Positions 8,475 to 61,284 of a DNA stretch of 64,000 nt are shown one piece after another. Within the stretch, counting starts at the first letter, position 1. Every line of letters begins with the position of its first letter. Below the pieces are notes generated by a model, which saw only the letters and a list, made by a program, of their open reading frames with translations, did no database searches and was not told the origin of the DNA. This DNA comes from a virus, in the IMG/VR virus record IMGVR_UViG_3300045988_132725. One strand, given 5' to 3'. Made by a program: the position numbers and the translations under genes.

Positions 8475-8858
8475 TTAAGGTTGTGGTTTTTGGAGTGGTG
8501 CTTTAGGGATCGCCTTGCTGTTATCCACCAATTGGGCGCATTCATTGAACACACGTTCGACAAATTCCCATACGTCATCCGTGAACTCTTTCTCTGAGGC
8601 TCCCTCACAAGCCTCGTTAAGGTATTTGGCTAGGTCCTTGGTGATCTCCAACTCGATCGGGTTCTCTTGGTCTATCTGAGGATTCCAAGAGATAGATCCC
8701 GTTTCCTCGTCTTGCTTGATCTGGTACTTATCATTATCTTCCTCCGATAACTGTACTTGTTTCACCAGTTCTTTTTTCAAGTTATACGTCTTATAGTCCA
8801 CCGGTTTTTGTGGTAAAAGGTTCAAGAGATAGAACCTGTCTTTAACGAATAGTTTCAT
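8475..8858 (-). CDS. Hypothetical acidic protein
   Basis: 127-aa ORF with protein-like composition. The overlapping 63-aa ORF at 8417-8608 is judged spurious. Confidence 0.5.
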   Translation of the reverse strand: MKLFVKDRFYLLNLLPQKPVDYKTYNLKKELVKQVQLSEEDNDKYQIKQDEETGSISWNPQIDQENPIELEITKDLAKYLNEACEGASEKEFTDDVWEFVERVFNECAQLVDNSKAIPKAPLQKPQP

Positions 8859-9831
8859 TTCGGTATTAATTTATTGATTATCAGTATTTTGTTTTCTTTT
8901 CTCCCTTACGTTAAAACGCAGCATCCCCTTTATACCCTAGAGAAGAATGTCTCATTCAACCTTTAAGCACCTTAAGTACCAAAAAGACGTACTATCCCCC
9001 GGCATGGCTCGCATACCCCCAATAGTACCTTGAATGAATCCTCAAACTTCTCTCGACCCCATACAACACTTCCGTACCCCAAGCCTTGAACGTAATTAAT
9101 GTTTTCTTCCTGATTACTAACGACTCCTTCTACCAACCGACTCTACTGCTTCTTCCTCGCCATATCAAAGCTGGTAATTATCATAATCGCTTTCTGTCAG
9201 TTATAATCTACATCCGCTCCTTTGTCGCTCATTTACCTCATGGTGCTTAGATTGCGCAGAACGCTTTATTCTTCTCTAGGTTCCTGTTGTCAGGGTAGAC
9301 ATTGCAGGATTTTTTACTTCCCATGTGCAAATGGTTATATGGATGCCACTTTCCTTTGTTCCCACCTTACGGCGTGGACTGAGGGATATAGATCGCCTAT
9401 CTATTATTCGTAGATTCAGCGATCGCACAGGACTCAGTGTTACGGGTAGCGTCTCATTACTCATTCTACCCGCCTCCTATCGGTTTGTTTACCGCCAGTT
9501 TTCCGACCATTTTTAGGTTTGCCACGATGTCAATTCCGAGGCTCTCACCTCTCAACCCCTCCGCTGAAGGATTATTGTTTATATAAGAATAGGTTTTTTT
9601 TTGGAAAAGGTTTGAAAAAGAGAATGATTTTTTCAGATAAATGTTTAATGTGTTGATTATTAGTGATTTTTTGCTGCATATTAAGCATGGAATACCAAAT
9701 TTGGTAGATAAGCTTTGGAATATAAAAATATTCAAATAGGACTAAGAAGACTTTTTACTTCCTCGTTCTAAGATGAAATCCTCTCAAAAAAGCAATATGT
9801 CTAATTTGCTAGAAAATGTCCTTATGATTAT
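8859..9831 (-). other. ORF-free tract A (candidate long ncRNA or decayed gene)
   Basis: 973 nt with only short ORFs of non-protein-like composition. The plus strand is C/T-rich. A structural-gene box sits at 9577-9593 with no ATG after it. Several local hairpins are present. Confidence 0.4.
9577..9593 (-). promoter_or_regulatory. Structural-gene box (minus sense CCTATTCTTATATAAAC)
   Basis: Shares the 16-mer TTTATATAAGAATAGG with 53066-53081. Confidence 0.4.
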
Positions 9832-22873: not shown

Positions 22874-22892
22874 GTTTATGAAAGAATAGAGG
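22874..22892 (-). promoter_or_regulatory. Structural-gene box (minus sense CCTCTATTCTTTCATAAAC)
   Basis: About 30 nt upstream of the chaperone ATG. An upstream CAAAC element lies about 20 nt further 5'. Confidence 0.4.
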
Positions 22893-22918
22893 GGATTTTA
22901 GAAAAAAGTTTGATTAAA

Positions 22919-22970: not shown

Positions 22971-23426
22971 TTATTTTATTTCCTTAGATATACTTAAACG
23001 ATATTGAAATTCATCTACCAATCTTTTAATGGCTTGCTCCATAGGATCTTCTATATCTAAAATATCTTTCTCGTAAATGATTTTATCAGAGATATCAGAT
23101 AACATCCAAGTTCCATATGGTGCTACACATGCTGAATGGGAGAAATAGCCCGTTAACATTGTGTTATCAATAAGAACAAATGGATGGAATAAAATGGTAT
23201 TACATTCAAATAGCTTGAATCTGTTTTGATCTTCAGCTTTTAAAGAATTTTTTATTGACTTAAACGCTTTGATATTAGTTCGTAATTCTATAAGTAAATC
23301 TTCTTCACTATATTCCCCTTTACGAAGAATACCCGCATAACCATTAAAATGATCATTATGAAACTTTACTAATTCTTCAGTAGGAAAAATTACATTAACT
23401 TCTGACTTGTCGTTCTTTTGAATCAT
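22971..23426 (-). CDS. Hypothetical protein, partner of the glycosyltransferase
   Basis: 151 aa, A+T-rich, overlaps the upstream gene by 32 nt. No confident domain. Confidence 0.5.
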   Translation of the reverse strand: MIQKNDKSEVNVIFPTEELVKFHNDHFNGYAGILRKGEYSEEDLLIELRTNIKAFKSIKNSLKAEDQNRFKLFECNTILFHPFVLIDNTMLTGYFSHSACVAPYGTWMLSDISDKIIYEKDILDIEDPMEQAIKRLVDEFQYRLSISKEIK

Positions 23427-24822
23427 TCTCTTGCAAGTAATCTCCTGTTTTAGAATAATAAGGATAGATTATTGCGTCTAACCATATCCGTTTACAAGCT
23501 TTTTTCAATAAATGTGTTGAACCATAGTTCTCATGCGGTGTAACTACTTTTATCATATATCTAGAATTTAAAGGTTTTACAATTTCTTTTTCTCCAATAT
23601 CACAGAGGAAACTTATGCAGATTTTTTTCCAGCTATATTTTTTTGTTAGCATTTTTTTTAGGGATGTAGCATATTCTTTCCATTTTGATTGTTGATTATT
23701 GATAGTTTTAATGGCTTCACTGACATTTTCCAAGTCTTGTTGCGAAAATATTGTTTTTCCATCTCCTTTTATTTCTATTGGGTATACATATTTAGCGGCT
23801 TGGTTGGCAAAACTATCATCTAAAAATTCATATAAACCAGAATTTTTGGAAACAACCAAAGGAATACCAGCAGCAATAGCTTCCCAGCCAGCTAAACCAA
23901 AACCTTCATGGATAGAAAGCATAAGTGCGACAGTACTTCGTTTTAGCAAAGTAAAAATTTCTTCTCGATCCTCCTTATATGGGACTATATTATACAACGA
24001 TTGACCTTCTCCAAGATTAAAAATGTTTAATTGACTTGAAATATGATTTTTAATATCTTGAATCTTTGATTTATCAAGATCTTTTTCTAATCCTACTAGT
24101 TCTACTTTAGAGTCGTGATAGAAAGCTCCTTCTCCACATTCTAGAATAGCTTTCTTTAAAGCGCAAACCGTTAGGCTAAATAATTTAATATAGTCTGTGT
24201 TATATTCTAGTCTGCCTGTACATACCCCTATAAATTTATTAGGTAATTTTTGATTGCTTTTAATTTCAGGCAATCCCGGTATGAACATCTTACATTTGCT
24301 TTTCTGTTCATCATCTACAAGATCCATTGCTGATTTATACAATTTAGGACCTACACCAAAAATAATATCGGCATTACTAAATATTATTTCTTGCCTTGAT
24401 TTTTTATAAGATGATTTGTAAGGGTCAAAATTAATTTTAAACGGTTCATAGCTTTCATATGACATATGATGGAAAGCTATGAATTTACTGTTATACTCTG
24501 ATTGAAACTTACATTCATAGGCAATTTTTCCTGAAATTACATCATGCCCAATAAAGTAGTTCTTAGCATCTTCTCCATTAATAGATTTTAGAATGAATGG
24601 AACAAAGGCATCACTAAACTCTTGTGACTTTAGGTTTATAATTTTAATACCTTTGCCTTCTGCGTCTTCTAATCCTGCTTTGTCTATATTTAATACTACA
24701 CAATAAAGAGATAGATCTTCCAAATCCAATTTTGCTAGCGAACACAGTAAATCATAATTGAAAGAATTTATGCCTCCTTTTTGAGTACCCCATGAGTCTG
24801 TCAAAGAAATAATGTTAACCAT
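23395..24822 (-). CDS. GT-B fold glycosyltransferase (GT4-like) with about 70-aa C-terminal extension
   Basis: SLTDSWGTQKGGINSFNYDL (N-terminal GT4 pattern) and STVALMLSIHEGFGLAGWEAIAAGIPLVVSKNSG (the E-x-FG...EA.A.G.P motif). Start trimmed to the ATG at 24820-24822 because a -7 box lies at 24845-24852. Confidence 0.7.
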   Translation of the reverse strand: MVNIISLTDSWGTQKGGINSFNYDLLCSLAKLDLEDLSLYCVVLNIDKAGLEDAEGKGIKIINLKSQEFSDAFVPFILKSINGEDAKNYFIGHDVISGKIAYECKFQSEYNSKFIAFHHMSYESYEPFKINFDPYKSSYKKSRQEIIFSNADIIFGVGPKLYKSAMDLVDDEQKSKCKMFIPGLPEIKSNQKLPNKFIGVCTGRLEYNTDYIKLFSLTVCALKKAILECGEGAFYHDSKVELVGLEKDLDKSKIQDIKNHISSQLNIFNLGEGQSLYNIVPYKEDREEIFTLLKRSTVALMLSIHEGFGLAGWEAIAAGIPLVVSKNSGLYEFLDDSFANQAAKYVYPIEIKGDGKTIFSQQDLENVSEAIKTINNQQSKWKEYATSLKKMLTKKYSWKKICISFLCDIGEKEIVKPLNSRYMIKVVTPHENYGSTHLLKKACKRIWLDAIIYPYYSKTGDYLQENDSKERQVRS

Positions 24823-24844
24823 GATACTTAGATTTAAGAATAAA

Positions 24845-24852
24845 CAAATATA
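24845..24852 (-). promoter_or_regulatory. Host-type -7 box TATATTTG (TAnnTTTG)
   Basis: Plus-strand caaatata. About 23 nt upstream of the glycosyltransferase ATG. Confidence 0.5.
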
Positions 24853-24961
24853 GTGAATAGATGATAGATTATCCATGAATTTTCATTTATTCGACATGGT
24901 TATGTTTTATAACATGGAAATTTGTTTTGTTTATAGATTTGTAGTCTATCAGAGGGTTATA

Positions 24962-36949: not shown

Positions 36950-37767
36950 GTCAAATTGTATTTGGATTTGATGCTTGATGATATGTTTTTCATGGATTGA
37001 ATAAGATTCTTATCCACGGTGAAGTATGGGTGATCCTCTCCGAATATAGCTCCACCCTTCGCTAGGTTTTGCTTGAACACAGGATTAACTGCTTTATCTA
37101 TAATAGAACTTATATCGGGAACATCCATATAGTTGGGTCTCGTAAATGATTCCACCAAGTAACAACGGCATCTCCAATCGATAGGGGGGATCAGCCATTC
37201 AGGAAATTGAGATTTAGGATAGCTAAGTCCTTCCAGCGCACGATGAGAGTCACGAACACGCTCGTCCCCTTGTGTCATAAACATAAGGGTTGTCTCCTCT
37301 GGTAAAGTTATCCACCATGCTGCTATAAATGAAGCGTAGTCTATGTCCTTATTTTCGGTCTTGGCGTATACATTATTATATAGATAGAAGATCTCTTCCG
37401 GACCGCTATCCTCGTCTTGCTCCTCTATATCCATATATACTTGAGTCTCCTCTGCCGTGGCAAAATCAATCAAGTTGTCCAAAGCCGCAACGAGAGCTTT
37501 CCTTCTCTCGATCTCTGAGGGCGTTAGATATGTCTCGTTGTGATTTCTTACTATATCCAGCGCCTCGTTAAAATCTATACCAAACCTTCTCACGCAATGT
37601 CCAAAAGCGAACATGGCCCGAGCCTCGACAATGTCTTGAAACTCCTCTAGGTCTATGGTCTGGTTGTCGAATTTATCTAATAGTTGCTCGAACAAGAACA
37701 ATAAATACTCGTACTCTTTCTCGGTCTCATCATTAATTTTAGTCTCATCGAATATCTCGTCTTCCAT
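36946..37767 (-). CDS. Mu F-like minor head protein
   Basis: 273 aa. QGDERVRDSHRALEGLSYP and IDWRCRCYLVE are the Phage_Mu_F signature. Confidence 0.8.
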   Translation of the reverse strand: MEDEIFDETKINDETEKEYEYLLFLFEQLLDKFDNQTIDLEEFQDIVEARAMFAFGHCVRRFGIDFNEALDIVRNHNETYLTPSEIERRKALVAALDNLIDFATAEETQVYMDIEEQDEDSGPEEIFYLYNNVYAKTENKDIDYASFIAAWWITLPEETTLMFMTQGDERVRDSHRALEGLSYPKSQFPEWLIPPIDWRCRCYLVESFTRPNYMDVPDISSIIDKAVNPVFKQNLAKGGAIFGEDHPYFTVDKNLIQSMKNISSSIKSKYNLT

Positions 37768-39106
37768 TCATGACCTCCTGTAAATAGTTCGCTACGCTAC
37801 TGCTGCTCCTTCTCCTATAACGTCTTCTGGATGCAGGGGCAACAGTACCCATTGATCCACCAGCCACCACGTTATCCTTATCATCGACTTTACCGTCATC
37901 ATTTATATCGTTCCATCCAGCGGGATTATTAAACTGCTTCTTTACAACAACACCAAATTCCTTTGCGATCTCGTCTGGTTCTATCTCATATTTATCTGAA
38001 AGAAAATCGTAAAGATCTATCTTGCTCTCAACGCTCATCTCCAATCCTCCGGAATATTTAAATTCCAGTCCATTCTCAATATATCCCATAGCTACTAGCC
38101 GTGGAATAATCTCCTCGTTCATGGCATTCTCAATATATTCCCGATAGACCTTGATGCGGTCTCGGAAAATATCTTGGTGGGCTTTAGTTGATCCTACATA
38201 GGATTGTGTCGCTCCAGCCATAGACTCAGAACCTAGAATCAAATTTGACACCTCGGCGTTAACTAGCTCGATAAGGCTCGTATAAATCTTCTCGCTATTG
38301 GACATAGTAAAAGCCTTGATGTCTATGTCATCATTTAATCCCGTCACGATAACACGATTGGTTGCGGCAGATGCGATATCGTTGGCTAGTCTATTTCGAT
38401 CTCCAAGATTCTCACTCTCCGATTTACCATGGATAATAGGTTGTCCATATGTATGGCTGAAATTTATGTAGTTAGCCAACGTGAATTTCTTGGCGAGAAT
38501 CAATGGAGTAGTGGCTGAGAACAAGCCTAGATCACCAGAGTTTATAAGGATATAGTTCTTCTTATATTTAGGAGTCTCAAGGTCCCAATTAGGAAGCCAT
38601 ATGCCTTGACGTTTCAATACGGTCTTTTGTTCAGGCAATACATTGCGGCGTTCGATGAGATTCACGTCATTCAGTTTTCCTGTAATAGGATCGATTGTTG
38701 GATTAATCTCAATCAACGTATAACCATACAATTTAGATTCAGCAATGCCTTTGATGATCTTGATGAATTGGCTCCCTTGTATTTTCTTCGTAGCCTCCAC
38801 ATCACGGACATATTGACCATTAGCATTTTGTCTTGCCAACATATATCTTTCTCCGATAATCTGGGACTCCAATGTCTCTAAGACACTTCTTATGTGAGCG
38901 TCCTGTTGTACACATGCCTCATATAAGTCGATCAATCTTGATCTATCATCCAAGATCACTCCCTTGACAACTTGAGAGCGAGTCGATTTATATCTGCAAT
39001 TCCTTTCGATCTCGGACACATATTCCTGTATGGTCTTTTTGCTTGTCCGGAAGATACTCTCTAAGGTTTGCGAGTCTATTTTCCCTTGATTTATATTCTT
39101 GTCCAT
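37745..39106 (-). CDS. Portal protein (Mu gp29-like)
   Basis: 453 aa, immediately upstream of the MuF-like gene, with an Arg/Ser-rich C-terminal tail. Called by size, position and composition. Confidence 0.65.
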   Translation of the reverse strand: MDKNINQGKIDSQTLESIFRTSKKTIQEYVSEIERNCRYKSTRSQVVKGVILDDRSRLIDLYEACVQQDAHIRSVLETLESQIIGERYMLARQNANGQYVRDVEATKKIQGSQFIKIIKGIAESKLYGYTLIEINPTIDPITGKLNDVNLIERRNVLPEQKTVLKRQGIWLPNWDLETPKYKKNYILINSGDLGLFSATTPLILAKKFTLANYINFSHTYGQPIIHGKSESENLGDRNRLANDIASAATNRVIVTGLNDDIDIKAFTMSNSEKIYTSLIELVNAEVSNLILGSESMAGATQSYVGSTKAHQDIFRDRIKVYREYIENAMNEEIIPRLVAMGYIENGLEFKYSGGLEMSVESKIDLYDFLSDKYEIEPDEIAKEFGVVVKKQFNNPAGWNDINDDGKVDDKDNVVAGGSMGTVAPASRRRYRRRSSSSVANYLQEVMNGRRDIR

Positions 39107-39117
39107 TAGGTTTTAGT

Positions 39118-39136
39118 TATTTATGAAGAATAGAGG
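39118..39136 (-). promoter_or_regulatory. Structural-gene box (minus sense CCTCTATTCTTCATAAATA)
   Basis: About 22 nt upstream of the portal ATG. A second CCTCTATT lies about 30 nt further 5'. Confidence 0.4.
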
Positions 39137-39379
39137 CATCTTAAGTGAGTTGTTTTGAAATAGAGGTTCTATGATATTATCCAATATATATTCAAATGCC
39201 TATTTTGTTTGTTTTGTTAAACACGATATTAATATACTTAAACGTTTCTGTGGCATTACATATAAGTGATGAATAATTTTATATATCGTGTATTTATATT
39301 TTATGTGCTAATAATTAGATGGATATAAATTTATAATAAAAAATATATGTAATAGTTTGTCAGTATAAAAATAGATGTA

Positions 39380-47816: not shown

Positions 47817-48413
47817 ATGGCAAAGAAAGGTGTATTGACAACAGCGGATTATCTTCCATTTAAGGAGTATAAGGAAACAATGTCCAAACTTCATCGTGAT
47901 GGCTATTATCGTGATGAGCTTTATTTTATTCTAGCGTATACAACAGCTCTTCGTGTATCGGATTTACGCATGTTAAAATGGGAAGACGTGTTAAATAAGA
48001 CATGTTTGGTCGTTACCGAGAAGAAAACTAAGAAGACCAGACCTATACCATTCAATGATGAGTTTAGAAAAATCGTGTCTGAGCTGTATGAATTATTAGG
48101 ACATCCATACAAGGGTTGGTACATTTTTGAAGGGAACAAGCAACAACCTATGAGTATCCAACATATCAACCGTAGGCTGAAAGATATCAAGGAGAGATAT
48201 GACTTATCCATTGAGAATTTCTCTACCCATACGTTTAGGAAAACATTTGGGCGTAATTACTATGAGACGAGAGGAAAAACAGAGGAGGCCCTTATCCAGC
48301 TGCAAAAGGTATTTAATCATTCCAATGTAGGTATCACTTATGTATATATCGGCATTAGAAATGACGAGATCAACGACTTTTACAAAAACATTAAATATAG
48401 AGACGATGATTGA
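47817..48413 (+). CDS. Short tyrosine recombinase (catalytic domain only)
   Basis: 198 aa. TALRVSDLRMLKWEDV (Arg), HTFRKTFG (H-x-x-R) and NHSNVGITYVY (His, Tyr). No N-terminal core-binding domain. Confidence 0.7.
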   Translation: MAKKGVLTTADYLPFKEYKETMSKLHRDGYYRDELYFILAYTTALRVSDLRMLKWEDVLNKTCLVVTEKKTKKTRPIPFNDEFRKIVSELYELLGHPYKGWYIFEGNKQQPMSIQHINRRLKDIKERYDLSIENFSTHTFRKTFGRNYYETRGKTEEALIQLQKVFNHSNVGITYVYIGIRNDEINDFYKNIKYRDDD

Positions 48414-49008
48414 TTTAAAAAAGAACAAGGGAAACTACCTAACGTACGATGAATATAGAATTACGCTGGATAGGTTAAGGATGGATCGTATGTGCATTGA
48501 GGAGTTATTTTTCGTGCTGGCTTTCTACACGGGATTAAAACTGTCAGATCTACTTTCCCTCAAATGGAGTGATGTTTTGGACAAGGATGAATTCATATGG
48601 ATCAAAACCAATCCGTGCAAGAGGACATTTGCGTTATCGTGGAAAGGACAGGATGTGCGTTCCCGATTGTCATATTTACATGAAGAACTTGGCTCTCCGG
48701 AAAAGGATCGATATGTATTTGAGACGAAAACAGGAAGACATTGTCATAACTCGTTTATTGATGAGTTACTGAAAAGGGTAAGAGATAAATATGATTTACC
48801 GGTAAAGCCTCTATACGCAAGCAGCTTTAGATTAACCTTTTGCCATCATATATATGAGACCGAAGAAAGAAAAGTAAAGGCTATCGCCTTCTTGGATTCA
48901 TATGTTAGCGGTAAAACTGTTGACATAGCCACTAATGGAAGACATATCCCTAGCGAGGAGATAGAAGATGCTTTAAAATCAATGAATATAAAATATAGAA
49001 ATGACTAA
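48406..49008 (+). CDS. Degenerate tyrosine-recombinase-like paralog
   Basis: Start trimmed to ATG 48406 (an ATGA-type overlap with the upstream stop). TGLKLSDLLSLKWSDV has Lys in place of the catalytic Arg. SSFRLTFC has Ser in place of His. Confidence 0.55.
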   Translation: MIDLKKNKGNYLTYDEYRITLDRLRMDRMCIEELFFVLAFYTGLKLSDLLSLKWSDVLDKDEFIWIKTNPCKRTFALSWKGQDVRSRLSYLHEELGSPEKDRYVFETKTGRHCHNSFIDELLKRVRDKYDLPVKPLYASSFRLTFCHHIYETEERKVKAIAFLDSYVSGKTVDIATNGRHIPSEEIEDALKSMNIKYRND

Positions 49009-50170: not shown

Positions 50171-50256
50171 GGATTTATGTGAAGTAAAGTCTAACTATTG
50201 CAAATGAGGCTTTTATATTAGTTCTTGAATGTATAAAAAGAAATGTTCTAGCAGAA

Positions 50257-51375
50257 TCAATCTTTTTCAGGCTTGATATGCTCTGATGGGTCAAGAGATC
50301 TTAACTTAAGTAAAAAACTAAAATGTTCTTCTAATTCTTTACTTTTTTTTGTGTCTTCTATTTTAAATTTTTCGGTTGATTCTTTAAATTTCTTTATTGA
50401 TTTTGTGATTTCTCTTCTAAAACGAAGTAATGGAACAAATAAAGGGAAAAATAGTCCGCTAAAGATAGCAAAAGATATAGACGATATTAGAGCAAAAGTT
50501 TCATTGAAAATAAGTTCTTTGTCTAATAATACATTATATAAGATGGAAAGTATCGATATTGATAATAAAATCAGTGTAAAATGAATCAAATTGAAGTAAT
50601 GAGTAAATATACTAGCTCCTTTCTTTTTAAATTTAAAAATAGCTCCTATAGCCAAGACAATAATGGCTAATACATAAACAATTGTCATAGACCATGATCC
50701 TAAAAAAGGTAATAATCCAATAACAAAAGTAGATAATATTAAAGAAAAGAGTATTTTAATACAAGTCGTAAGTTTAAATTCATATAATATATCGCCATTG
50801 GAAGGATTTCTTTCCTTTATAGAAATCCAATAATAACTCCATATATATAACCAATATATAAAAGATGTAATAGAAACTAAACTTACTGTATCAATGCACC
50901 ATTTTATAGCCCCCCAAAAACAATCAAATATAAAAATAAATATACAAAATAAAAATGAATAAAAGAAAGAAGACAAAAATTCAGGTGCTTGGGTTATATT
51001 TTTGTATAAATTATCAACATTATCCCTTAAAGTAAAATAACTTGTTTGATATTCAACAGTTAAGAACTGTAGCTCGTTTACCAAGCTAAGCATTTCTTGT
51101 TTACGTGGATTATTTTCTTCTTTTGATTTAGCAATAGCACTATAGAGAACTTTATAATTACGCTTTTTTAAAACATCTACAAAATTATCCCCTTCTCTGC
51201 TTAAAAACGCTTTAGTCCGTTTGCAAATAATTAACAATAAATTTTGTATAAAATTATTGCTGTTTTTCTCGATGTTGTCAGATCCAAAAAAACATAAAAC
51301 AGCTAAAGTCATTATTGAACCTAAAAAAGTTGCACTATTTCCACTAAGAAAAGTGCATAATAGTACTAGAAGCAT
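50257..51375 (-). CDS. Multi-pass membrane protein (about 7-8 TM), candidate effector
   Basis: 372 aa, very A+T-rich. Has hydrophobic helices (FLSSFFYSFLFCIFIFIF, IVYVLAIIVLAIGAIF and others) and a charged C-terminal tail. Confidence 0.6.
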   Translation of the reverse strand: MLLVLLCTFLSGNSATFLGSIMTLAVLCFFGSDNIEKNSNNFIQNLLLIICKRTKAFLSREGDNFVDVLKKRNYKVLYSAIAKSKEENNPRKQEMLSLVNELQFLTVEYQTSYFTLRDNVDNLYKNITQAPEFLSSFFYSFLFCIFIFIFDCFWGAIKWCIDTVSLVSITSFIYWLYIWSYYWISIKERNPSNGDILYEFKLTTCIKILFSLILSTFVIGLLPFLGSWSMTIVYVLAIIVLAIGAIFKFKKKGASIFTHYFNLIHFTLILLSISILSILYNVLLDKELIFNETFALISSISFAIFSGLFFPLFVPLLRFRREITKSIKKFKESTEKFKIEDTKKSKELEEHFSFLLKLRSLDPSEHIKPEKD

Positions 51376-51378
51376 GTC

Positions 51379-51939
51379 TCAATTAATGATTTTGTGTGAT
51401 GAAAGTAAAAGGCTTTGAAACTGTTTCTTTAATGCTTCAGTGTTTTTAGTGTCATTAAAATTTGCGAAAGCAGAATGTTCTTCTGCTCCTAATTCTCTTC
51501 TATATTTATTGTCATCACCGATTGAAAAATGAAATTCAGGTTTTAGTTCGCTGTCTAGTTTATAAACTAGAACCTGCCCTTCAGCTATTTTATCCTTTAT
51601 TAAAGGACTAATATTTGTTGCTAAGTCTTCTATAAAGCTATGTTCTTTTTTTTCTAAAATAATGGAAAGTTTTCCTCCTCTATTTAAAAAATGAGTAATT
51701 TGGTCGTATAGTGGCTGCATAGGGTTATAATCCCCTTCTGTAACTTCTTTATCTACTTTTTCAGCAAAACTAGTTCTGAAGAGAGAACCTTCACCGCAAA
51801 GCATATCGATTTCATTGGAGTGCCTAAAAATCTCTTTCATTATTATAGCATTATGTGATCTGTCAGCATTCCACATTAATTCATTTCTTTTGCTGTTTGC
51901 AATAGTCTCTATCTCGACATTATACTCTACTAGACTCAT
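51379..51939 (-). CDS. Cytosolic protein with possible PLD/Nuc-like fold lacking the motif Lys
   Basis: 186 aa. The order of blocks AIIMKEIFRHSNEIDMLCG, LNRGGKLSIILEKKE and FHFSIGDDNKYRRE..AFANFND parallels Nuc-type PLD domains (HxK..D..GS.N), but reads HFS rather than HxK. Confidence 0.3.
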   Translation of the reverse strand: MSLVEYNVEIETIANSKRNELMWNADRSHNAIIMKEIFRHSNEIDMLCGEGSLFRTSFAEKVDKEVTEGDYNPMQPLYDQITHFLNRGGKLSIILEKKEHSFIEDLATNISPLIKDKIAEGQVLVYKLDSELKPEFHFSIGDDNKYRRELGAEEHSAFANFNDTKNTEALKKQFQSLLLSSHKIIN

Positions 51940-51959
51940 TTTCTCTAAGTTTGGACGTG

Positions 51960-51967
51960 CAAATTTA
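51960..51967 (-). promoter_or_regulatory. Host-type -7 box TAAATTTG
   Basis: Plus-strand caaattta, 21 nt upstream of the ATG at 51939. An ATTGCA-N8-ATTGCA repeat lies just upstream. Confidence 0.5.
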
Positions 51968-51989
51968 AATAAATAATTTGATATTGCAA

Positions 51990-53117
51990 TCTCTACATTG
52001 CATTAAAATCAAAATACATTGGGAGTTATCTTGGTTTTTTTATGTTCTTGGGCATAATTTGTTTTTGTTAAGAATATGGCTTCGCCTTTACCCCTCCGAT
52101 AACATCCCTCAGCAACGTAGTTGAAGCTTAACTATAACTACTACCTTATATGACATATACAGTATATACTACTGTTACTATATAAGGTAATACCTATTTA
52201 CAGGATATTACAAGATTGGTTCGATATGGGTTGATACAAGCTTCTTACCTAAAACTACGGCGATAAGAGGACTTGGTTGACTAATCTAGATATCAATCAC
52301 CATATCCGAGCATTCTACGACACTTCCGCCCCTCCACCTATGTAAGCAACTTCGTTCATAAAAGGATAACCGTTCTGTTGGCCAAGTAGTAGGGAACTCT
52401 TGTATGCTACTCGTTTTAAACAGATCGGCGGCGCTTGGTCTCCTTTCCTCCATGGATAAACCAGAATAGGAACAGCGAGATTGCAAACGTCAGAGCCTTG
52501 GTTGACCTGTTTCCAATTACTAGGATACGTCCAGTTACGGATGCGAATCATAGGATTTTTATTTGTCTTCGGTCACTCGTTTACCGGCTCTCGGTTGATG
52601 TTATCGGAGTTCGGGTTGTCAGGCGTAAGACATAGCCCTAGATTATACCACCGATAAACGAGCGTTCGTAAATACTCGATCTTTTTGTTAGATTTTTGTC
52701 AATCTGGGAGAAGAGAGGCACGACATTGCAGCCTTGTCTTAAAAACTCCCGTAAGGTTTGTTTTATATTCTCCAGCATCCCTCAACGCAGGAGAAGTAGA
52801 ACGGTTATTTATTCCCGGATACTAATTTTTCTGACTCGAATCTACATCAAGTTTCTGTCTGCCAATAGCTGTATCAAAGCTGGGATAAGGAACAAGATCC
52901 TCTAACTCATCCCGGAAAGCATTAATAAATGCCGATTGAGGATATTTCCGCTATTGTATCGTCACCAAGGTATAACTATCGACCAACCGGTTAGGATTGA
53001 CCCACATGATAGACATGGAGCAATGGGATAGGGTACAAAGCGTCCAGACCTTCGGATTTGAAGGTTTTATATAAGAATAGGCTGATTTGATCAAAAAGGG
53101 TTTGTGGTTGTTTGATA
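51990..53117 (-). other. ORF-free tract B (candidate long ncRNA or decayed gene)
   Basis: About 1.1 kb with only 66-78-aa ORFs on either strand. A structural-gene box sits at 53064-53081 with no ATG after it. A 10-bp inverted repeat lies at 52142-52189. Confidence 0.4.
53064..53081 (-). promoter_or_regulatory. Structural-gene box (minus sense CCTATTCTTATATAAAAC)
   Basis: Shares a 16-mer with 9578-9593. Flanks are also similar (GAAGG on one side, AAAAGG(G)TTTG on the other). Confidence 0.4.
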
Positions 53118-53687
53118 TTAATTCGTTACGGAAACAATAATACCTACTGCTTCCATATCACTTATAGTTTGCCTAGCTTCATCTAGCGTACTTCCATGAT
53201 ATAAGTGATCTGCAATGATATTTAATTTAAAAGATATGCCTCTATGTCCATTACTTATAAAGTCAATAAGAGCTTGACCACAAGCAGGACATGGGCTTTT
53301 AGATACTCTCATAATTAACGATAAAGTTCCGCTGGCATCAGTACCTTCATCGTCAATGGAATGATCTATAAATGATTGAATGCCAGCTATTGCCTCCGTT
53401 TCTGCATGGACTCCATCTTCACTTATGCCTGTGCCTATTACAACTTCATTGCCATCATCTTCATTTATAAAGGAAACCTGAGCATAAGTAGTATATCCTG
53501 TACTTGATGATTCTTCTGTTGTGATGAGTCTATTGTAAATAAAATCGCCTTGAATACAATCTCCATTGATCCCGGAAATTAAATTATACTGTCGTGTGGC
53601 AGACTCCCTATTATCCATTTGGTATTTGGGATGATTTGTATTGTTTGGAGAAAGTCTGCTTATTGCATTTTCTTGGTATGAATACAT
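53118..53687 (-). CDS. Zinc-dependent deaminase, AID/APOBEC-like
   Basis: 189 aa. Has VHAETEAI ... SKSPCPACGQALIDFISNGHRGISFKLNIIADHLYHG. The H-A-E and P-C-x-x-C motifs are 35 residues apart. The post-PCxxC helix-strand pattern resembles APOBEC (SPCxxCA..l..FIs....l.I...r.Y). Confidence 0.7.
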   Translation of the reverse strand: MYSYQENAISRLSPNNTNHPKYQMDNRESATRQYNLISGINGDCIQGDFIYNRLITTEESSSTGYTTYAQVSFINEDDGNEVVIGTGISEDGVHAETEAIAGIQSFIDHSIDDEGTDASGTLSLIMRVSKSPCPACGQALIDFISNGHRGISFKLNIIADHLYHGSTLDEARQTISDMEAVGIIVSVTN

Positions 53688-53703
53688 TTGGTTCGTTTTA
53701 AAT

Positions 53704-53982
53704 TTATGGATTATTCTTCTCTCCTCGCCCCTCTTCTCTTCTCACCAGTTTCCCGTCACTTCCAGCCAAGAACTTCTCGCTGATGCCTTGCTTCTCTGAT
53801 TTAATGGGAATGGTAACTATGTTGGTTTGTCTTCTGGCGAATATCGGAGCTACTTGGTAAAGAATCTCTATCGCCTCATCCATTGACAGGTAATAATTAC
53901 CAGCGTATAGACCGAAGAAGTGACCTTGATCTCCTCTTGATATCTTGTGGTAATAGTTCCTCTGTAAGGCAATATTTCCCAT
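53704..53982 (-). CDS. Small protein co-transcribed with the deaminase
   Basis: 92-aa ORF 17 nt upstream of the deaminase gene. No recognisable domain. Confidence 0.45.
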   Translation of the reverse strand: MGNIALQRNYYHKISRGDQGHFFGLYAGNYYLSMDEAIEILYQVAPIFARRQTNIVTIPIKSEKQGISEKFLAGSDGKLVRREEGRGEKNNP

Positions 53983-55110: not shown

Positions 55111-55135
55111 TAAACCAAACATAGCTTTAAAATAG

Positions 55136-55170
55136 GGCGAACATCGTTAAATCTGGTGTTCGCCTTTTTT
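55136..55170 (+). terminator. Intrinsic terminator after the lipoprotein gene
   Basis: Stem GGCGAACA / TGTTCGCC (55136-55143 / 55157-55164), followed by TTTTTT. Confidence 0.75.
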
Positions 55171-55315
55171 GTATTAAATGGCTAGAATAAGGAGCAAATT
55201 GGCACTGGGATAGAGAATTTAGGGAAAACGGGGCTTGAGGATTTGGTTCCCGGAAAATTTTTGGAAACAGATATATGCATTTTTATATATAGGAAAGAAG
55301 ATTGTTGGGATGGAT

Positions 55316-55345
55316 GGCAGATGGTTAAGAGGCAGTTGGTTAAGG
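55316..55345. repeat. Tandem 15-mers GGCAGATGGTTAAGA / GGCAGTTGGTTAAGG (iteron-like)
   Basis: Read directly. 13 of 15 positions are identical and the copies are adjacent, embedded in a purine-rich ORF-free tract (55200-55560). Confidence 0.7.
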
Positions 55346-55834
55346 GTGGAAATACTGGATGGGAAAATGAGAGAATTTACATATAGGCAAAGGTGTGCTT
55401 CCAGTGTATAAAAACTGTTTTTGATTTCTGGAAGGACAACCTAGGTTAGGGGAGGTGTTTGGAAGGGTAAAAACGGGACTTGAAAATAGGGACCGGCAAC
55501 ATGTATGGTATCCGCAACGCAAAGGTAACCCTCCCTCTTCTTTTTTGCCTTTTTCGTCCTGTTTGATCATTAATTAATGATTTATTTATGAATATAATAT
55601 CTGATTATCAGTATGTTATGTAAATAAGTTCACTAATATAGAAAGTGAACTTTTTGATAAAGGTGTATTAGTTGACTAGTACACTAGTAAGGTGTATAAT
55701 GTCATGTTTGTATAAAATATGACATTATGTCATGTTATTTTGTCATGTGATGATTCGCTTTAGTAAGTTGCTTACTAAAAGTAACTATTGTCTTATTTGC
55801 ATTAGTTCTTTTGCCTATATAATGTACGTGTATA

Positions 55835-56182
55835 TTATTCTTTATTGTCCTGTATCGCTTTCCTAATAGCTTCAGCGAATTTAGGATGTAAATGTATTTC
55901 GTTTTCCTCTATGATAACTAAATTATCACTTAAACTAGTATGCTTTGTATTATCTGTCTGATTATCAATATTATCAGGGGTAAACACTTGTTCGCCTAAT
56001 AGTTCATTAAATGTGCTTTTTGTATATTCTCTTAAACTACATAACTGTTTGATTGATAGTGTATTTATGTCTCTATCTAGTATGGTGGATATTGTACTTT
56101 TATTAATCCCTAATACATTTGATAAATCTATATTAGTAATATCGTACTTAAATCGTATGTCTCGTATAGTGTTCATATCCAA
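55835..56182 (-). CDS. XRE-family helix-turn-helix regulator
   Basis: 115 aa. ITNIDLSNVLGINKSTISTILDRDINTLSIKQLCSL matches the HTH_XRE pattern. Confidence 0.65.
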   Translation of the reverse strand: MDMNTIRDIRFKYDITNIDLSNVLGINKSTISTILDRDINTLSIKQLCSLREYTKSTFNELLGEQVFTPDNIDNQTDNTKHTSLSDNLVIIEENEIHLHPKFAEAIRKAIQDNKE

Positions 56183-56269
56183 TATTTTACGTATTAATAT
56201 GTAGTGTATAAACGTTAAATACGTGTTAATGAATGTATTTTCCGTTTTTAATCTAAAAAGCCGTTACAT

Positions 56270-56310
56270 CTTTGCACTGTGATCAAGAAACAACGGTTAC
56301 TTAGATCACA
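56270..56310. promoter_or_regulatory. Conserved 21-nt box plus inverted repeat TGTGATC-N19-GATCACA (operator candidate)
   Basis: CTTTGCACTGTGATCAAGAAA at 56270-56290. Inverted-repeat arms at 56278-56284 and 56304-56310. Confidence 0.5.
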
Positions 56311-56343
56311 AAGTTCTTTGTCTTATTGATAACAGCGTAAAGT

Positions 56344-56535
56344 TTAGTCTTTTAATTCAGTACCTATTAATTCTTTGTACGGTATGTTAGTGAGTTCATG
56401 AATTAACATAACCTCTTTGATACTGCGATCTAGCAAATTATCATATTTGCGTAAATTAGACGTATCACATTTGAGTTTATAAGCAATGTCTAATTGCTTA
56501 ATATTATGTTTTTTAAGTAGCTCTCTAAAAGTCAT
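56344..56535 (-). CDS. Small XRE-like helix-turn-helix regulator
   Basis: Trimmed to ATG 56533-56535 (MTFRELLKKHNIKQLDIAYKLKCDTSNLRKY...). The longer ORF would run through the operator and promoter. Confidence 0.55.
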   Translation of the reverse strand: MTFRELLKKHNIKQLDIAYKLKCDTSNLRKYDNLLDRSIKEVMLIHELTNIPYKELIGTELKD

Positions 56536-56617
56536 ACAAAAACCAATTAATATTATTAAACAACTAATTAACATTCTTTTTACATGTAAAATTGCACATG
56601 TGAAAAATAACATGTTA

Positions 56618-56667
56618 CTTTGCGCTGTGATCAAGAAATAAAGATCACACCCTAACAGCTGTTAGGG
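56618..56667. promoter_or_regulatory. Second copy of the 21-nt box with TGTGATC-N10-GATCACA, plus 18-bp palindrome CCCTAACAGCTGTTAGGG
   Basis: CTTTGCGCTGTGATCAAGAAA at 56618-56638. Inverted-repeat arms at 56626-56632 and 56643-56649. Palindrome at 56650-56667. Confidence 0.5.
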
Positions 56668-56671
56668 TTGA

Positions 56672-56702
56672 CAAATATACTGAAATATTGATTATAAACA
56701 AA
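56672..56702 (-). promoter_or_regulatory. Host-type promoter (minus sense TTTG-N19-TATATTTG)
   Basis: Plus-strand caaatata at 56672-56679 and caaa at 56699-56702. The palindromes lie just downstream of the predicted transcription start. Confidence 0.5.
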
Positions 56703-57508
56703 AGGTATGTAATGAGTTTTAGCGTATTGTTTTACCTGTTATCCGAAAAACTAACATAACATTGCATATTTAACAGGTTTTTGTAAGATTAATAAGTAGG
56801 TATTTGAGAAGTTGAAAGCAAGAAATAAAGGTTTAACCTTTACGATATTGCAGTGAAGTTGTGATGTATTGAGAATTAAAACAACGGTTAGACCGTTCCT
56901 AGTGTGATAGGCTAGGATAATGATCTTTGACGTATTGAGTGCTAAAAGTACAAATAGATAGCACATAGTTCAGCTGTATTATTGAAATATATCTTTTATA
57001 TTGGTTTCCGATATTGTAAGATATGTGTATAATATATAGCCTTATGAAAAACCTTGTAAGATAGCATTTATTTATACGCTATGAATGTTTTGTAAAACGG
57101 TAACTAAATGTAATGAACTTGAAAAGGAATATTCCGGGATAGATTTGTCGGAATGTCTGGGTGAAACCAGTTTGTACGGGTAAGGTACGCTTTAATCAAT
57201 CGGTTTGGTTTTAGAACGGCTTTACTTACAATTCGGGAATGATAGGCTGTAGTCTCGTATATATATGAGGTGAATCATATCTATATCTCTATTCATTCCC
57301 AGTATTACACAACTATTGTAACTACGAAATAATTGTGTCTTTTCGGATGGACTACCGACACGAAATACTAGAATCGTAACTTTAGTATTTGGGTGTGTCT
57401 TCCAGTGACTTTAAACTTACAACGGCGCAAAGATACTGAAAGAATTTGTTCGATACAAATGTAGTTCGCAAATTTTTATAAACAATTTAATTATAGGAGG
57501 ATTATATT

Positions 57509-60705: not shown

Positions 60706-60816
60706 ATGGGATTAATAGTGACATTCGGTTTTGTTAGCGTAGTCTCTTTATGTGTGATTACGTGGGGAATATTTGAGATCCATAAAATGAACAAGAAAAA
60801 AGAGCGATATTCGTAA
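60706..60816 (+). CDS. 36-aa hydrophobic peptide (tentative)
   Basis: My translation is MGLIVTFGFVSVVSLCVITWGIFEIHKMNKKKERYS: one TM helix plus a basic tail. Confidence 0.25.
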   Translation: MGLIVTFGFVSVVSLCVITWGIFEIHKMNKKKERYS

Positions 60817-60829
60817 AATTACATTGTAT

Positions 60830-61003
60830 ATGAAAACTGGAGACAAAGCAAAGGTTAGTCCTGTGCTTACGGGATTGTCCGAATGGATAGAAGGCGTGAT
60901 TATTAAAATTCGCAACAACCCGTTTACAGGGCTGGAAATTGCCGTAAAAGATGCTTGTGGGCGTGTCTTTTTCGGTGAGTCTAAATATTTTCAACCCGTA
61001 TAA
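60830..61003 (+). CDS. 57-aa protein upstream of vapD (possible partner)
   Basis: My translation is MKTGDKAKVSPVLTGLSEWIEGVIIKIRNNPFTGLEIAVKDACGRVFFGESKYFQPV. Its stop lies 2 nt before the vapD ATG. Confidence 0.4.
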   Translation: MKTGDKAKVSPVLTGLSEWIEGVIIKIRNNPFTGLEIAVKDACGRVFFGESKYFQPV

Positions 61004-61005
61004 TC

Positions 61006-61284
61006 ATGTTTGCGATAGCTTTTGATATGGTCATTTCAGACCTTAAACAAAATTACGGGGATCCGTATAATAATGCTTATTTTGATATTAGTAACATAAT
61101 GGAGAAGTATGGATTTTATAGGGCACAAGGGAGCTTGTATCTAACAGAGAATAGAGACATGGCAAACCTGTTCCGTGCTATTGAGGCTTTGAAGAAAACG
61201 GAGTGGTTCAGAAAATCAGTACGTGACATAAGAACATTTAGGGTAGAGGATTGGTCAAACTTCACGGATTTTATGAAAGAATAA
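61006..61284 (+). CDS. vapD: VapD (Cas2-superfamily endoribonuclease)
   Basis: 92 aa. MFAIAFDM...YGDPYNNAYFDISNIMEKYGFYRAQGSLYL...WFRKSVRDIRTFRVEDWSNFTDF matches the VapD family pattern. Confidence 0.8.
   Translation: MFAIAFDMVISDLKQNYGDPYNNAYFDISNIMEKYGFYRAQGSLYLTENRDMANLFRAIEALKKTEWFRKSVRDIRTFRVEDWSNFTDFMKE

Follow-up and report, generated by a model that had tools for sequence, protein, structure and literature searches.

What is the role of a gene-free tract of about 1 kb that lies between two gene cassettes of a phage, and does it belong to either of them? The analysis covered a window of 64,000 nucleotides (the whole stretch of DNA studied here, IMG/VR record IMGVR_UViG_3300045988_132725). 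We suggest that this tract (tract B) probably encodes a structured non-coding RNA of ~1.0 kb, that the phage is a temperate one of Bacteroidales (probably of Parabacteroides), and that a second tract of the window (tract A) encodes a paralogue of ~0.7 kb, each predicted to be read on the minus strand and preceded by a promoter-type module. Transcription, its strand and late timing, the exact ends and the function of the tract RNAs are what we infer from the sequence comparisons described below.

Tract B is a self-contained non-coding block (window ~52,072-53,104). The absence of open reading frames (ORFs) reported in the initial annotation was confirmed: the longest ORFs between 51940 and 53117 are of 66-78 aa, all three kinds of stop codon are scattered in every one of the six frames, and a Pfam search of the tract in any frame gave no match at E up to 1. 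In relatives these mini-ORFs are frameshifted or have lost the start codon, the indels are not multiples of three, and frameshifted homology, which would have pointed to a decayed ORF, was looked for in the tract and not found. The composition difference that had been noted by eye was reproduced, with a G+C content of 42-44.5% in tract B, compared with 25-32% for the cassette on its left and 36-39% for the deaminase. Neither tract showed tandem or multi-copy direct repeats, iterons or terminal repeats; a 16-nt direct repeat that resembles the box (52061-52076 versus 53064-79) lies at the left end of tract B, off the conservation boundary, and was dropped. The predicted RNA body of tract B (52072-53065, minus strand, ~1.0 kb) has its putative 5' end at or just past the box described below and its putative 3' end at the conservation boundary (52072-52079). 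No canonical terminator was found at this 3' end by a scanner that allows short loops only and that missed a real terminator after the 127-aa gene downstream of tract A, confirmed by direct folding. The TAAATTTG motif of the next operon, noted before, lies on the minus strand ~22 nt upstream of the ATG at 51939. A Bacteroidetes housekeeping promoter consists of TTTG near -33 and TAnnTTTG near -7, and the TAAATTTG near 51,960 fits this consensus. The view that tract B is not merely the leader of that operon is upheld by this separate promoter and by the variation of the downstream contexts among relatives.

Tract B was detected at 96-98.5% identity in ~20 related contigs and at 88% in contig L174, with the flanks swapped for unrelated cargo. 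The core of tract B is 98.2-98.5% identical versus 92.7-94.7% for the adjacent genes (for tract A, 99.1-99.2% versus 93-98%), and the tract is still 96-98% identical where the neighbouring 320-aa backbone protein is only 44-60% identical. The homology of tract B is broken off at 53104 and ~52072-52079, beyond which the genes differ, and mosaic junctions fall on the two edges of each tract. The right cargo slot (53105-53766, outside the RNA) carries the APOBEC-like deaminase in the window and a 540-aa, 287-aa, 381-aa or 437-aa gene in relatives. The left cargo slot (50171-52071, also outside the RNA) carries, in the window, genes of 372 aa and 186 aa behind a TAAATTTG promoter of their own and other genes in L126, L137, L174, L175, L177 and L179, and it is absent in L129, where 154 nt are present instead. 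Tract B is thus retained in relatives that have exchanged or lost the flanking cassettes, a point on which its original description could have failed. Across these alignments it is the cassettes that vary and the tract that stays the same, and the predicted RNA is best placed as a fixed element of the phage backbone. An antitoxin-like or guide-like RNA component had been considered conceivable at this position. According to covariation and conservation, an RNA is probably encoded, but its partnership with the flanking cassettes is contradicted by a tract kept at 96-98% while the cassettes are replaced or absent. Besides selection, recent spread by recombination may account for part of the very high identity that tract B shows among otherwise diverged phages.

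The box TTTATATAAGAATAGG has exactly two matches in the window (allowing up to two mismatches), 9578-9593 and 53066-53081, both on the plus strand. Its flanks are related as reported (GAAGG 1 or 7 nt to the left, AAAAGG(G)TTTG 11-12 nt to the right), and the distance from the box end to the stop of the deaminase ORF (53118-53687, minus strand) is 36-37 nt. The box was initially regarded as a special opener of the two tracts, and this view is not supported: the 16-mer is the downstream core of a bipartite promoter-type module, CAAAC-N17-23-TATTCTT-N1-2-ATAAA, that also precedes the portal and the tail-chaperone/tape-measure operons. The pattern CAAAN-N17-23-TATTCTT-N1-2-ATAAA occurs four times in the window, always on the minus strand, versus 0.01 copies expected by chance. 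The tract B module (53066-53104, minus strand) reads CAAACC-N19-TATTCTTATATAAA and includes the box at 53066-53081; homology with relatives stops exactly at 53104. For the tract A module (9578-9614, minus strand) homology with relatives stops at 9621. The third copy (22875-22912, minus strand) is preceded by a terminator hairpin and lies 21 nt upstream of the ATG of ORF 22470-22853, a homologue of which is also preceded by the module in the relatives L149 and L154, and the fourth (39120-39157, minus strand) lies 14 nt upstream of the ATG of a Mu-type portal gene (37745-39106). The last two copies lie shortly upstream of late structural operons, and the other two head tracts A and B.

We suggest that the module is a candidate phage-specific promoter. 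It has no match to the sigma-70 consensus, and neither of the Bacteroidetes housekeeping elements (TTTG / TAnnTTTG) was found in CAAACC-N17-19-TATTCTTATATAAA on the minus strand. The presence of the same module before the portal and tail-chaperone/tape-measure operons suggests that the tract RNAs are co-expressed with late genes. Phage late promoters that depend on a phage sigma factor or activator are similar in being bipartite motifs of fixed spacing, on one strand, before structural operons; likewise, the module often follows the terminator of the preceding unit, and relatives encode a sigma factor (BS-TP1 has its own). They differ in that the two best copies of the module head units without an ORF. 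The module and the R1 domain described below are absent from BS-TP1 (first 50 kb) and from MT835494. The bare 16-mer has 66 matches in the viral collection, mostly chance, and the box with GAAGG gave two chance matches only in cellular genomes. Boxes beside tRNA genes in L036, L039 and L055 precede a canonical sigma-70-like promoter and are probably coincidental. In L142, which has no genes in common with this phage, a box lies 1 nt from tRNA-Met, which is a weak lead.

Covariation is strongest in tract A. The predicted RNA body (8925-9577, minus strand, ~0.65-0.7 kb) is followed by the 127-aa ORF (8475-8858) and by a terminator at ~8217-8252 (minus strand) that folds at -21.2 kcal/mol (z = -4.4). 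Downstream of tract A, the window, L143 and L144 all have the 127-aa gene or a homologue. The genes that flank tract A have homologues in BS-TP1 that are immediate neighbours of each other, and therefore tract A and the 127-aa gene are an insertion and not a decayed diversity-generating retroelement (DGR). Divergent homologues of tract A with 82% and 65% identity were available, and 41 of the 199 predicted pairs are double-compensated versus 8.2±2.4 in shuffles (0/500) and 2-8 in slid controls, a count that depends mainly on these two sequences. When pairs were taken from tract A of the window alone, 12 were kept by a double change in L144 (slid controls 0-4) and 28 in L143 (slid controls 6-14).

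A relationship between the two tracts had been suspected, and it is borne out by a covariance-model match together with a common covarying central architecture. The model R1, built from tract A copies only, has its best non-self match in the window at 52570-52668 (minus strand) over the full model length, although the score is modest (21.4 bits, E ~1e-3, with rough calibration). R1 finds tract B in all relatives tested, with one match per tract. Independent minimum free energy folds of A and B have the same central architecture, and in unconstrained folds of both window tracts, L144 and L143 the central domain is closed by a helix at the same position, the sequence of which differs in B. On the best reading of these models, the two tracts are paralogues that belong to an undescribed family of structured RNAs of 0.7-1.0 kb. 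Short motifs of A and B used as search patterns (GTTGTCAGG...AGACAT; TACRACACTTCCG...) gave chance matches and close relatives only.

The predicted tract B RNA can be followed from its 5' end. The small hairpin CCTTC-GGATTT-GAAGG (53049-53064) noted earlier is found, with a folding energy of -7.2 kcal/mol (z = -2.0) as minus-sense RNA; its CCUUC/GAAGG stem is invariant in relatives, while the loop is AAAUCC, AGAAAC or AACUUC (minus sense). The tract A counterpart is CCUUC-AGC-GGAGG, which requires a U.G pair and therefore works best in the minus sense, and in L143 it is ACUUC-AGAAGA-GAAGU, with the closing pair changed on both sides. The next element is a variable 5' arm (52956-53030, minus strand) of 28 nested pairs that occurs as two alleles with 75-80% mutual identity and is 100% paired in all copies. 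Three pairs of the arm are compensated on both sides between the alleles (slid controls 0-1), and its inner hairpin GGUCAAUC/GGUUGGUC, which needs G.U pairs, is lengthened in allele 2 by a 4-nt insertion. The conserved domain common to tract A (52570-52681, minus strand) comprises the 5' strand of the closing helix, the outer helix CUCGUUUAUCGG/CCGGUAAACGAG and the bipartite hairpin GGG-CUA-UGUC-loop-GACA-A-CCC, in which an upper-stem U-A pair is replaced by C-G in L174. Further downstream, the segment 52300-52342 (minus strand) contains a GGGG-CGGAAGUG island, common to tract A and invariant in L143, together with UCGUA-G-AAUGCUCG, the 3' strand of the closing helix that acts over long range. 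Near the 3' end, a long A+U-rich hairpin (52134-52197, minus strand) changes in length among relatives only in its loop. It contains the inverted repeat TACCTTATAT/ATATAAGGTA (52142-52151, 52180-52189) around ATATAC-A-GTATAT, correctly recognized before, which folds at -23.6 kcal/mol (z = -4.9). A closing helix between the CAAACCUUUU motif and a 3'-terminal AAAGG(GG) is possible, but it shows no base variation and is at odds with the reading of the module as a promoter; it was not adopted.

The first alignment of tract B was too invariant for covariation, and the signal is weaker than in tract A: 7 double-compensated pairs versus 1.3±1.0 in shuffles (0/500) and 0-2 in slid controls, contributed mainly by one divergent sequence. 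Perfect long-range complements of 13 nt and 11 nt are present in tract B. L174 breaks ~37 of the 305 predicted pairs, and the global fold of tract B is therefore only approximate. Sliding-window folding energies (z-scores) are unremarkable over most of the tract and uninformative.

Watson-Crick covariation is blind to strand, and the minus strand is proposed from other features of the models. The consensus fold of tract A has -144.7 kcal/mol on the minus versus -109.1 kcal/mol on the plus strand, 199 versus 160 pairs and 42 versus 32 compensated pairs, and that of tract B has -271.8 versus -235.2 kcal/mol. The G.U-dependent hairpins form in the minus sense only, and an unbiased count of interior non-Watson-Crick pairs mildly favours the minus strand (46 versus 33). 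The minus strand also carries all four modules and every late gene nearby. We infer that the tract RNAs are read in this sense.

The comparison with known RNA families and systems identified no class to which the tracts could be assigned. No window match to Rfam 15 families (including GOLLD, ROOL, OLE, introns, RNase P, tmRNA, 6S and riboswitches) was detected at gathering thresholds, and relaxed Rfam searches of tracts A and B gave only noise (E 0.2-8.5, far below gathering scores). ARAGORN detected no tRNA or tmRNA gene in the window or in any of the tract-bearing loci tested. Neither group I nor group II intron models matched, and both tracts are flanked by complete genes, each of which has its own start and stop. 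The tandem repeats of a ToxI-like type III toxin-antitoxin system or a CRISPR-like array are absent in both tracts, and the neighbouring cassettes are exchangeable.

Large phage RNAs of the GOLLD and ROOL type are the closest parallel. The likeness includes the large size (0.6-0.8 kb for these families, 0.7-1.0 kb here), the phage or prophage origin, the many covarying helices around long-range closing helices, a G+C content above that of the surrounding A+T-rich DNA and the absence of an associated protein that would explain them. GOLLD is reported to increase with phage production, which is paralleled by the late-type module of the tracts. The tracts differ in having no sequence or structure match in Rfam 15 and no adjacent tRNA genes, in the host phylum (Bacteroidota versus Bacillota or lake and rumen taxa), and in being paired as paralogues in one genome, each with the same module and between cargo-exchange slots. 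UG27 reverse transcriptase (RT) systems of Bacteroidota prophages have intergenic arrays of ~0.9 kb, with extra units in neighbouring intergenic regions; the array is adjacent to an RT of 380-450 aa with small and large accessory ORFs, its units of ~135-167 nt form a hairpin with an asymmetric internal loop, a basal hairpin and a pseudoknot, and the RNA templates short cDNA hairpins (bioRxiv 10.64898/2026.09.22.753630). The tracts are similar to these arrays as gene-free structured RNAs of ~1 kb in prophages of the same host phylum, with structure conserved, sequence little conserved between copies and extra copies in other intergenic regions. However, no RT, sORF or bORF is found beside either tract or in the window, and, compared with the published description, the consensus fold is predicted as one nested architecture with helices that span ~300 nt, and tandem ~150-nt units are probably absent. 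The DGR of BS-TP1 (RT and Avd) is located in the tail-fibre gene region, where the window has tract A, and DGRs include a structured non-coding template RNA. The tracts differ from a DGR in having no RT, Avd or template/variable repeat pair; no similarity to these was found in or near either tract, and no direct repeat links either tract to any gene of the window.

Several other explanations have to be weighed against a free RNA gene. The tracts might be long structured 5' leaders, cis-regulatory parts of mRNAs the fold of which controls translation or stability of the downstream gene. The same module precedes protein-coding genes elsewhere, tract A always precedes the 127-aa gene or its homologue with the first strong minus-strand terminator only after that gene, and tract B ends without a canonical terminator, all of which would fit a leader. 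We nevertheless regard it as unlikely, as tract B is 96-98% identical across at least five different downstream contexts, and in the window a host-type promoter of its own precedes the downstream cassette. In L129 tract B lies only 154 nt from the 3' end of a convergent gene, so that there is no downstream gene for tract B to lead. For tract A, with its terminator only after the 127-aa ORF, a role as a long leader is conceivable. We know of no bacterial leader of 0.7-1.0 kb with a closed multi-domain fold. It is less probable still that the tracts serve a protein machine, for example an RT system (UG27, DGR), as its RNA partner or template, with the genes of that machine in another part of a genome of ~100 kb. 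No RT (RVT domain) was found among the 39 window ORFs scanned against Pfam, the window being ~64 kb of a genome of perhaps ~100 kb, and none is on record for the genes called beside tract B in nine further loci; RT, Avd or repeat similarity is also missing in or near the tracts, which are predicted to have a single nested fold and match R1 once each. In favour of such a partner are the part of the genome outside the window, the DGR with RT and Avd of BS-TP1 and the occurrence of UG27 systems in Bacteroidota prophages (bioRxiv 10.64898/2026.09.22.753630).

A role at the DNA level, as a scaffold for recombination and cargo exchange, a replication origin, or a packaging or attachment region, would make the tract edges crossover points and the palindrome a site of protein binding or unwinding. 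The mosaic junctions at both edges, the A+T-rich palindrome inside the inverted repeat and the integrase-family genes ~3 kb away are consistent with it. Compensatory changes in many separate helices are, however, unexpected for a DNA site, no iterons or repeat arrays are present, and contigs of 120-340 kb contain the tract whole and in a collinear arrangement, so that it is not the attachment site. Crossovers at shared promoter or terminator sequences, as known from phage mosaicism, suffice to explain the junctions, and we give the DNA-level role only a slim chance. The least probable explanation, and one that is effectively refuted, is a decayed or unconventionally decoded protein gene, whether a pseudogene, a gene with stop reassignment or a remnant of the retroelement that BS-TP1 has at the position of tract A. 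Stop-codon reassignment occurs in some Bacteroidota phages, minus frame 2 has few TAA codons, and the Avd and RT genes of BS-TP1 lie downstream of the large DGR target gene gp27. Against this, no single reassignment opens more than 199 codons (the longest such frame, of 392), all stop types occur in all frames, and the Pfam search up to E = 1 was negative. A tblastn comparison with RT, Avd and the proteins next to them in BS-TP1 likewise found nothing similar, and a tract with broken mini-ORFs and indels out of multiples of three is more conserved than its intact neighbours.

A gene for a structured RNA remains the preferred explanation, and it would operate as follows. Minus-strand transcription would be driven from the module (CAAACC, a 17-19-nt spacer and TATTCTTATATAAA), with expression alongside the late genes, possibly via a phage sigma factor like that of BS-TP1. 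The transcript would start at the box or directly after it; a short stabilising hairpin would come first, followed by the fast-evolving arm and then by the conserved multi-helix core closed by the long-range helix; for tract B it may end with the A+U-rich hairpin near 52,080-52,200. Accessory genes for defence or anti-defence are exchanged in the slots on both sides, with breakpoints at the edges of the promoter-plus-RNA unit. Our guess is that the tract RNA is a product of lytic growth that functions on its own, as a stable RNA or an RNA-protein particle similar to GOLLD and ROOL, with no cassette partner. More speculatively, A and B may be the founding members of an undescribed class of large multi-domain phage RNAs of gut Bacteroidales, expressed from a dedicated promoter during lytic growth and acting alone as RNA-only or RNA-protein assemblies comparable to GOLLD/ROOL, with a rapidly diversifying 5' arm that tunes specificity; their near-invariance among phages that differ elsewhere and their place as anchors between the cargo slots would then point to a role central to the phage life cycle or to accessory-gene exchange. 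We hold this wider hypothesis tentatively, as somewhat below an even chance.

To our knowledge, very few bacterial or phage RNAs longer than ~500 nt have complex conserved folds (GOLLD, ROOL, OLE and a handful more). The known large ornate RNAs have each become a target of structural and functional work. A new family, if true, would be an independent example from abundant human-gut Bacteroidales phages with a genetically tractable host group, and it would offer two paralogues per genome, a defined promoter-type signal, a natural fast-evolving arm and natural neighbour-swap variants. If the tracts were not transcribed, the finding would be an unusually conserved non-coding DNA module, and the covariation would then still need explaining. 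The module defines a candidate late-promoter motif for this phage lineage, and the two slots beside the RNA are shown to be cargo-exchange hot spots, which aids the reading of similar loci in other phages.

The 540-aa neighbour of tract B was followed as a route to divergent copies of the tract and led to an unrelated chromosomal ATPase operon. Among the cargo of the slots are the APOBEC-like deaminase and a Sel1-like gene, of which a distant homologue lies in a chromosomal ATPase operon.

We consider it likely that tract B, the ORF-free block of about 1 kb at window ~52,072-53,104, is a structured-RNA gene of ~1.0 kb on the minus strand, headed by a phage promoter-type module, paralogous to the smaller tract A (body 8925..9577, minus strand) and belonging to a family undescribed in the sources available to us. 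The initial annotation had reported an ORF-free tract here, and from the start codon of the 186-aa ORF at 51939 as far as the deaminase stop codon at 53118 nothing longer than 78 aa was found. All three stop types are present in all six frames of tract B, so no gene opens when one stop is read as sense. Six-frame translations had no Pfam match even at E = 1, the indels among relatives are of 1, 2 or 4 nt, and frameshifts disrupt the ORFs of 78 and 66 aa in 9 of 11 copies. We therefore rejected a gene in disguise and detected no frameshifted homology indicative of a decayed ORF. The mini-ORFs of tract A lost start codons or gained stops in two divergent loci, L144 and L143. No similarity to the Avd/RT proteins of phage BS-TP1 was detected in either tract, and no DGR-type repeats, iterons or tandem repeats were found. 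The 16-mer box TTTATATAAGAATAGG is identical at 9578-9593 and 53066-53081 and occurs nowhere else in the window; the small hairpin (53049-53064), the palindrome-enclosing inverted repeat (52142-52189) and the TAAATTTG motif ahead of the 186-aa gene lie where they had been annotated, and the contrast in composition holds (G+C 42-44.5% in tract B vs 25-32% on its left side and 36-39% on its right).

Tract B is retained in about 20 related contigs, as a block between exchanged genes. The homology with the window always stops at 53104, 23 nt past the box, and at the other edge starts only at 52072-52079 in several contigs. The right slot, occupied in the window by the deaminase gene, holds in relatives a 540-aa Sel1-like gene on the opposite strand or genes of 287, 381 or 437 aa. 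In the left slot the 372-aa + 186-aa cassette is absent from L129 (154 nt there) and replaced by unrelated genes in L126, L137, L174, L175, L177 and L179. The tract B core is 98.2-98.5% identical, compared with 92.7-94.7% for the adjacent genes, and is still 96-98% identical where the neighbouring 320-aa protein is only 44-60% identical. The initial annotation had thought an RNA component of the flanking cassettes conceivable; since these are swapped or missing while the tract stays constant, tract B is not a component of either.

The right-slot gene of the window (53118-53687, minus strand) encodes a 189-aa AID/APOBEC-like cytidine deaminase, matching several Pfam APOBEC-clade models at E about 1e-6, and a distant homologue of the Sel1-like gene is found in a chromosomal AAA_15/AAA_21 ATPase operon. 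Further along, 55111-57508 is a region of ~2.4 kb and 27-29% G+C with one ORF of at least 100 aa (55835-56182, minus strand) and a 31-nt direct repeat at 56270 and 56618; its counterpart in relatives carries assorted small genes, including ParE/YoeB-type toxins, DUF4160/DUF2442 pairs and a Cas2-like ORF.

The RNA structure is most clearly seen in tract A, for which L144 (82% identical) and L143 (65%) were reached via the adjacent 127-aa protein. RNAalifold on the six-sequence alignment predicted 199 pairs, 41 of them double-compensated, i.e. kept through change on both sides, vs 8.2±2.4 in 500 shuffles (none reaching 41) and 2-8 with the partners slid; 95% of paired cells can pair, vs about 40% when slid. 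Because this consensus was derived from the same alignment, the window sequence was also folded alone, and double changes kept 12 of its pairs in L144 (slid 0-4) and 28 in L143 (slid 6-14). On this covariation, tract A most likely specifies a structured RNA.

Tracts A and B had been suspected to be related, and the comparison agrees. Two islands conserved among the tract A copies, AUGUCU.ACCCUGACAAC and GGGG.CGGAAGUG, recur in tract B with their order and relative positions unchanged. Independent folds of the window's two tracts and of L143 give an outer helix (CAUUU.../...GUAAAUG in A, CGUUUAUCGG/CCGGUAAACG in B) enclosing a bipartite hairpin whose stems differ yet stay paired (lower stem UCCUG/CAGGA, UCUCG/CGAGA or GGG/CCC; upper stem UGUC/GACA vs UAAC/GUUA). 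When a covariance model was trained solely on tract A copies, its top match in the window other than tract A itself was tract B (52570-52668, minus strand), over the full model (21.4 bits, E about 1e-3), and this model matches tract B in every relative tested. Unconstrained folds of the central domain in four sequences place a long closing helix at the same position in all, formed in tract B by unrelated sequence. Within tract B, the 5' arm occurs as two alleles that differ at ~25% of positions; none of its 28 pairs is lost, three being maintained by double change, and a hairpin of this arm requires G.U pairs. With the L174 copy (88% identical) added, tract B has 7 double-compensated pairs vs 1.3±1.0 in shuffles (0/500) and 0-2 for slid partners; about 37 predicted pairs are disrupted in L174, which makes the fold of the full 1 kb a draft. 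Taken together, tract B is most likely a paralogue of tract A.

Alignment of the box regions detected a longer shared element, in minus sense CAAACC, a 17-19-nt spacer and TATTCTT(A/C)TATAAA. The window has four matches to CAAAN-N17-23-TATTCTT-N1-2-ATAAA vs 0.01 expected, all on the minus strand: one ahead of tract A, one ahead of tract B, one that immediately follows a terminator hairpin and lies 21 nt upstream of the ATG of ORF 22470-22853, and one 14 nt upstream of the portal gene ATG. In L149 and L154, true relatives whose structural genes are collinear and 50-80% identical in amino acids, the gene homologous to ORF 22470-22853 is preceded by the module. The module departs from the Bacteroidetes housekeeping consensus. 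Since BS-TP1 has a sigma factor of its own, a phage-specific promoter is plausible, and we regard the module as a putative one; regulatory sequences that are short and common to several phages lend themselves to crossovers, which would explain mosaic junctions at the module edge.

The minus sense is favoured as the transcribed strand by consensus fold energy (-144.7 vs -109.1 kcal/mol for A, -271.8 vs -235.2 for B), by the tract A counts (199 vs 160 pairs, 42 vs 32 compensated), by hairpins requiring G.U pairs and by the shared minus orientation of all four modules and the surrounding late genes; an unbiased count of interior non-Watson-Crick pairs (46 vs 33) puts it only mildly ahead. The tract B 5' end probably coincides with the box or lies directly beyond it, and a short hairpin with a fixed stem and a variable loop comes next. 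The 3' end is placed tentatively at the conservation boundary, where no canonical terminator was found.

Further sites were noted elsewhere. A fifth module core, TATTCTTTCATAAA (61270-61283, minus strand), lacks a clear CAAAC element and is followed by ~475 ORF-poor nt (60795-61270), which could be another ORF-less unit, or the core a weak promoter. In the unrelated metagenomic contig L142 (2027-2116) the identical 16-mer, followed by an A-like sequence, lies 1 nt from a tRNA-Met gene that is the first of three arrayed tRNA genes on the opposite strand; the box-type core may drive stable-RNA genes in other phages. In L149, a 114-kb relative, an ORF-free stretch of ~690 nt (8932-9620) upstream of the module, compared with tracts A and B by BLAST only, contains CTGTGAAGACCGTCAG twice.

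Rfam 15 gave no matches. By analogy, the closest in kind are GOLLD and ROOL, large ornate phage-borne RNAs (PMC12286853, PMC5737381), alike in size, multi-helix architecture, phage location and unknown function, and unlike in sequence, fold, host phylum, tRNA association and copy number. A catalogue of 10,006 viral RNA motifs spans only 29-151-nt motifs (PMC10690425) and could at most include sub-hairpins of the tract A/B RNA. UG27 reverse-transcriptase arrays, which occur in Bacteroidota prophages (bioRxiv 10.64898/2026.09.22.753630), were a serious candidate; we consider them unlikely, as no RT was detected beside either tract or in the 64-kb window and the predicted fold does not resemble an array of ~150-nt units, UG27 being compared by description. 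The window is probably shorter than the whole phage genome, and a distant RT is conceivable.

What probability we withhold from a structured-RNA gene is shared by an RNA partner of a retroelement encoded elsewhere, a long cis-acting leader and a DNA-level element. Downstream of tract A come the 127-aa gene and, about 220 nt past it, a strong intrinsic terminator (~8217-8252, minus strand; GGGGAGA...UCUCCCC then U6, -21.2 kcal/mol, z = -4.4), suggesting that tract A and this gene form one transcription unit and making a joint or processed transcript possible. Favouring the structured-RNA gene, we guess that tract B would be expressed in lytic growth as a free-standing RNA or RNA-protein particle.

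The 127-aa protein has no detected family and only four homologues in 5.8 billion proteins. Homologues of tract A's flanking genes are directly adjacent in BS-TP1, so tract A with the 127-aa gene is an insertion, not a remnant; BS-TP1 carries a DGR (Avd + RT genes) in the same tail-fibre gene region. Tract A is 99.1-99.2% identical among relatives vs 93-98% for neighbouring genes, and its homology ends 28 nt past the box, beyond which the spacer that follows the tail-fibre gene varies, as does the C-terminal part of that gene. Among otherwise close relatives, 9622-10872, comprising this spacer and the C-terminal third of the 1555-aa gene, is replaced or highly diverged; receptor-binding-domain swapping adjoins the tract A module. 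Minus-sense tract B RNA could pair with tail-fibre mRNA, 52840-52874 and 52198-52227 being 71-73% complementary over 30-35 nt to 11402-11436 and 10107-10136, at the level of chance inverted repeats in the window.

The window encodes a tailed phage with a Mu-type portal, head protease, tape-measure and tail proteins, two small integrase-family ORFs, DNA ligase, cytosine methylase and several antirepressors. Among characterised phages, the temperate Bacteroides phage BS-TP1 (111.7 kb, portal 64% identical; PMC12694917) is the nearest relative. This kinship, the Parabacteroides names of one neighbouring gene's homologues and the embedding of related copies in contigs of 120-340 kb point to a prophage of gut Bacteroidales. 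The integrase-family ORFs (47817-48413 and 48340-49008, plus strand; 198 + 200 aa) overlap and are kept as a pair in all relatives fetched, so a sequencing frameshift is not the cause; it would be unusual for a tyrosine recombinase to be split or to have two subunits. The structural gene block contains a 493-aa 'GT4-conflict' glycosyltransferase (23395-24876, minus strand; Pfam E = 2e-66).
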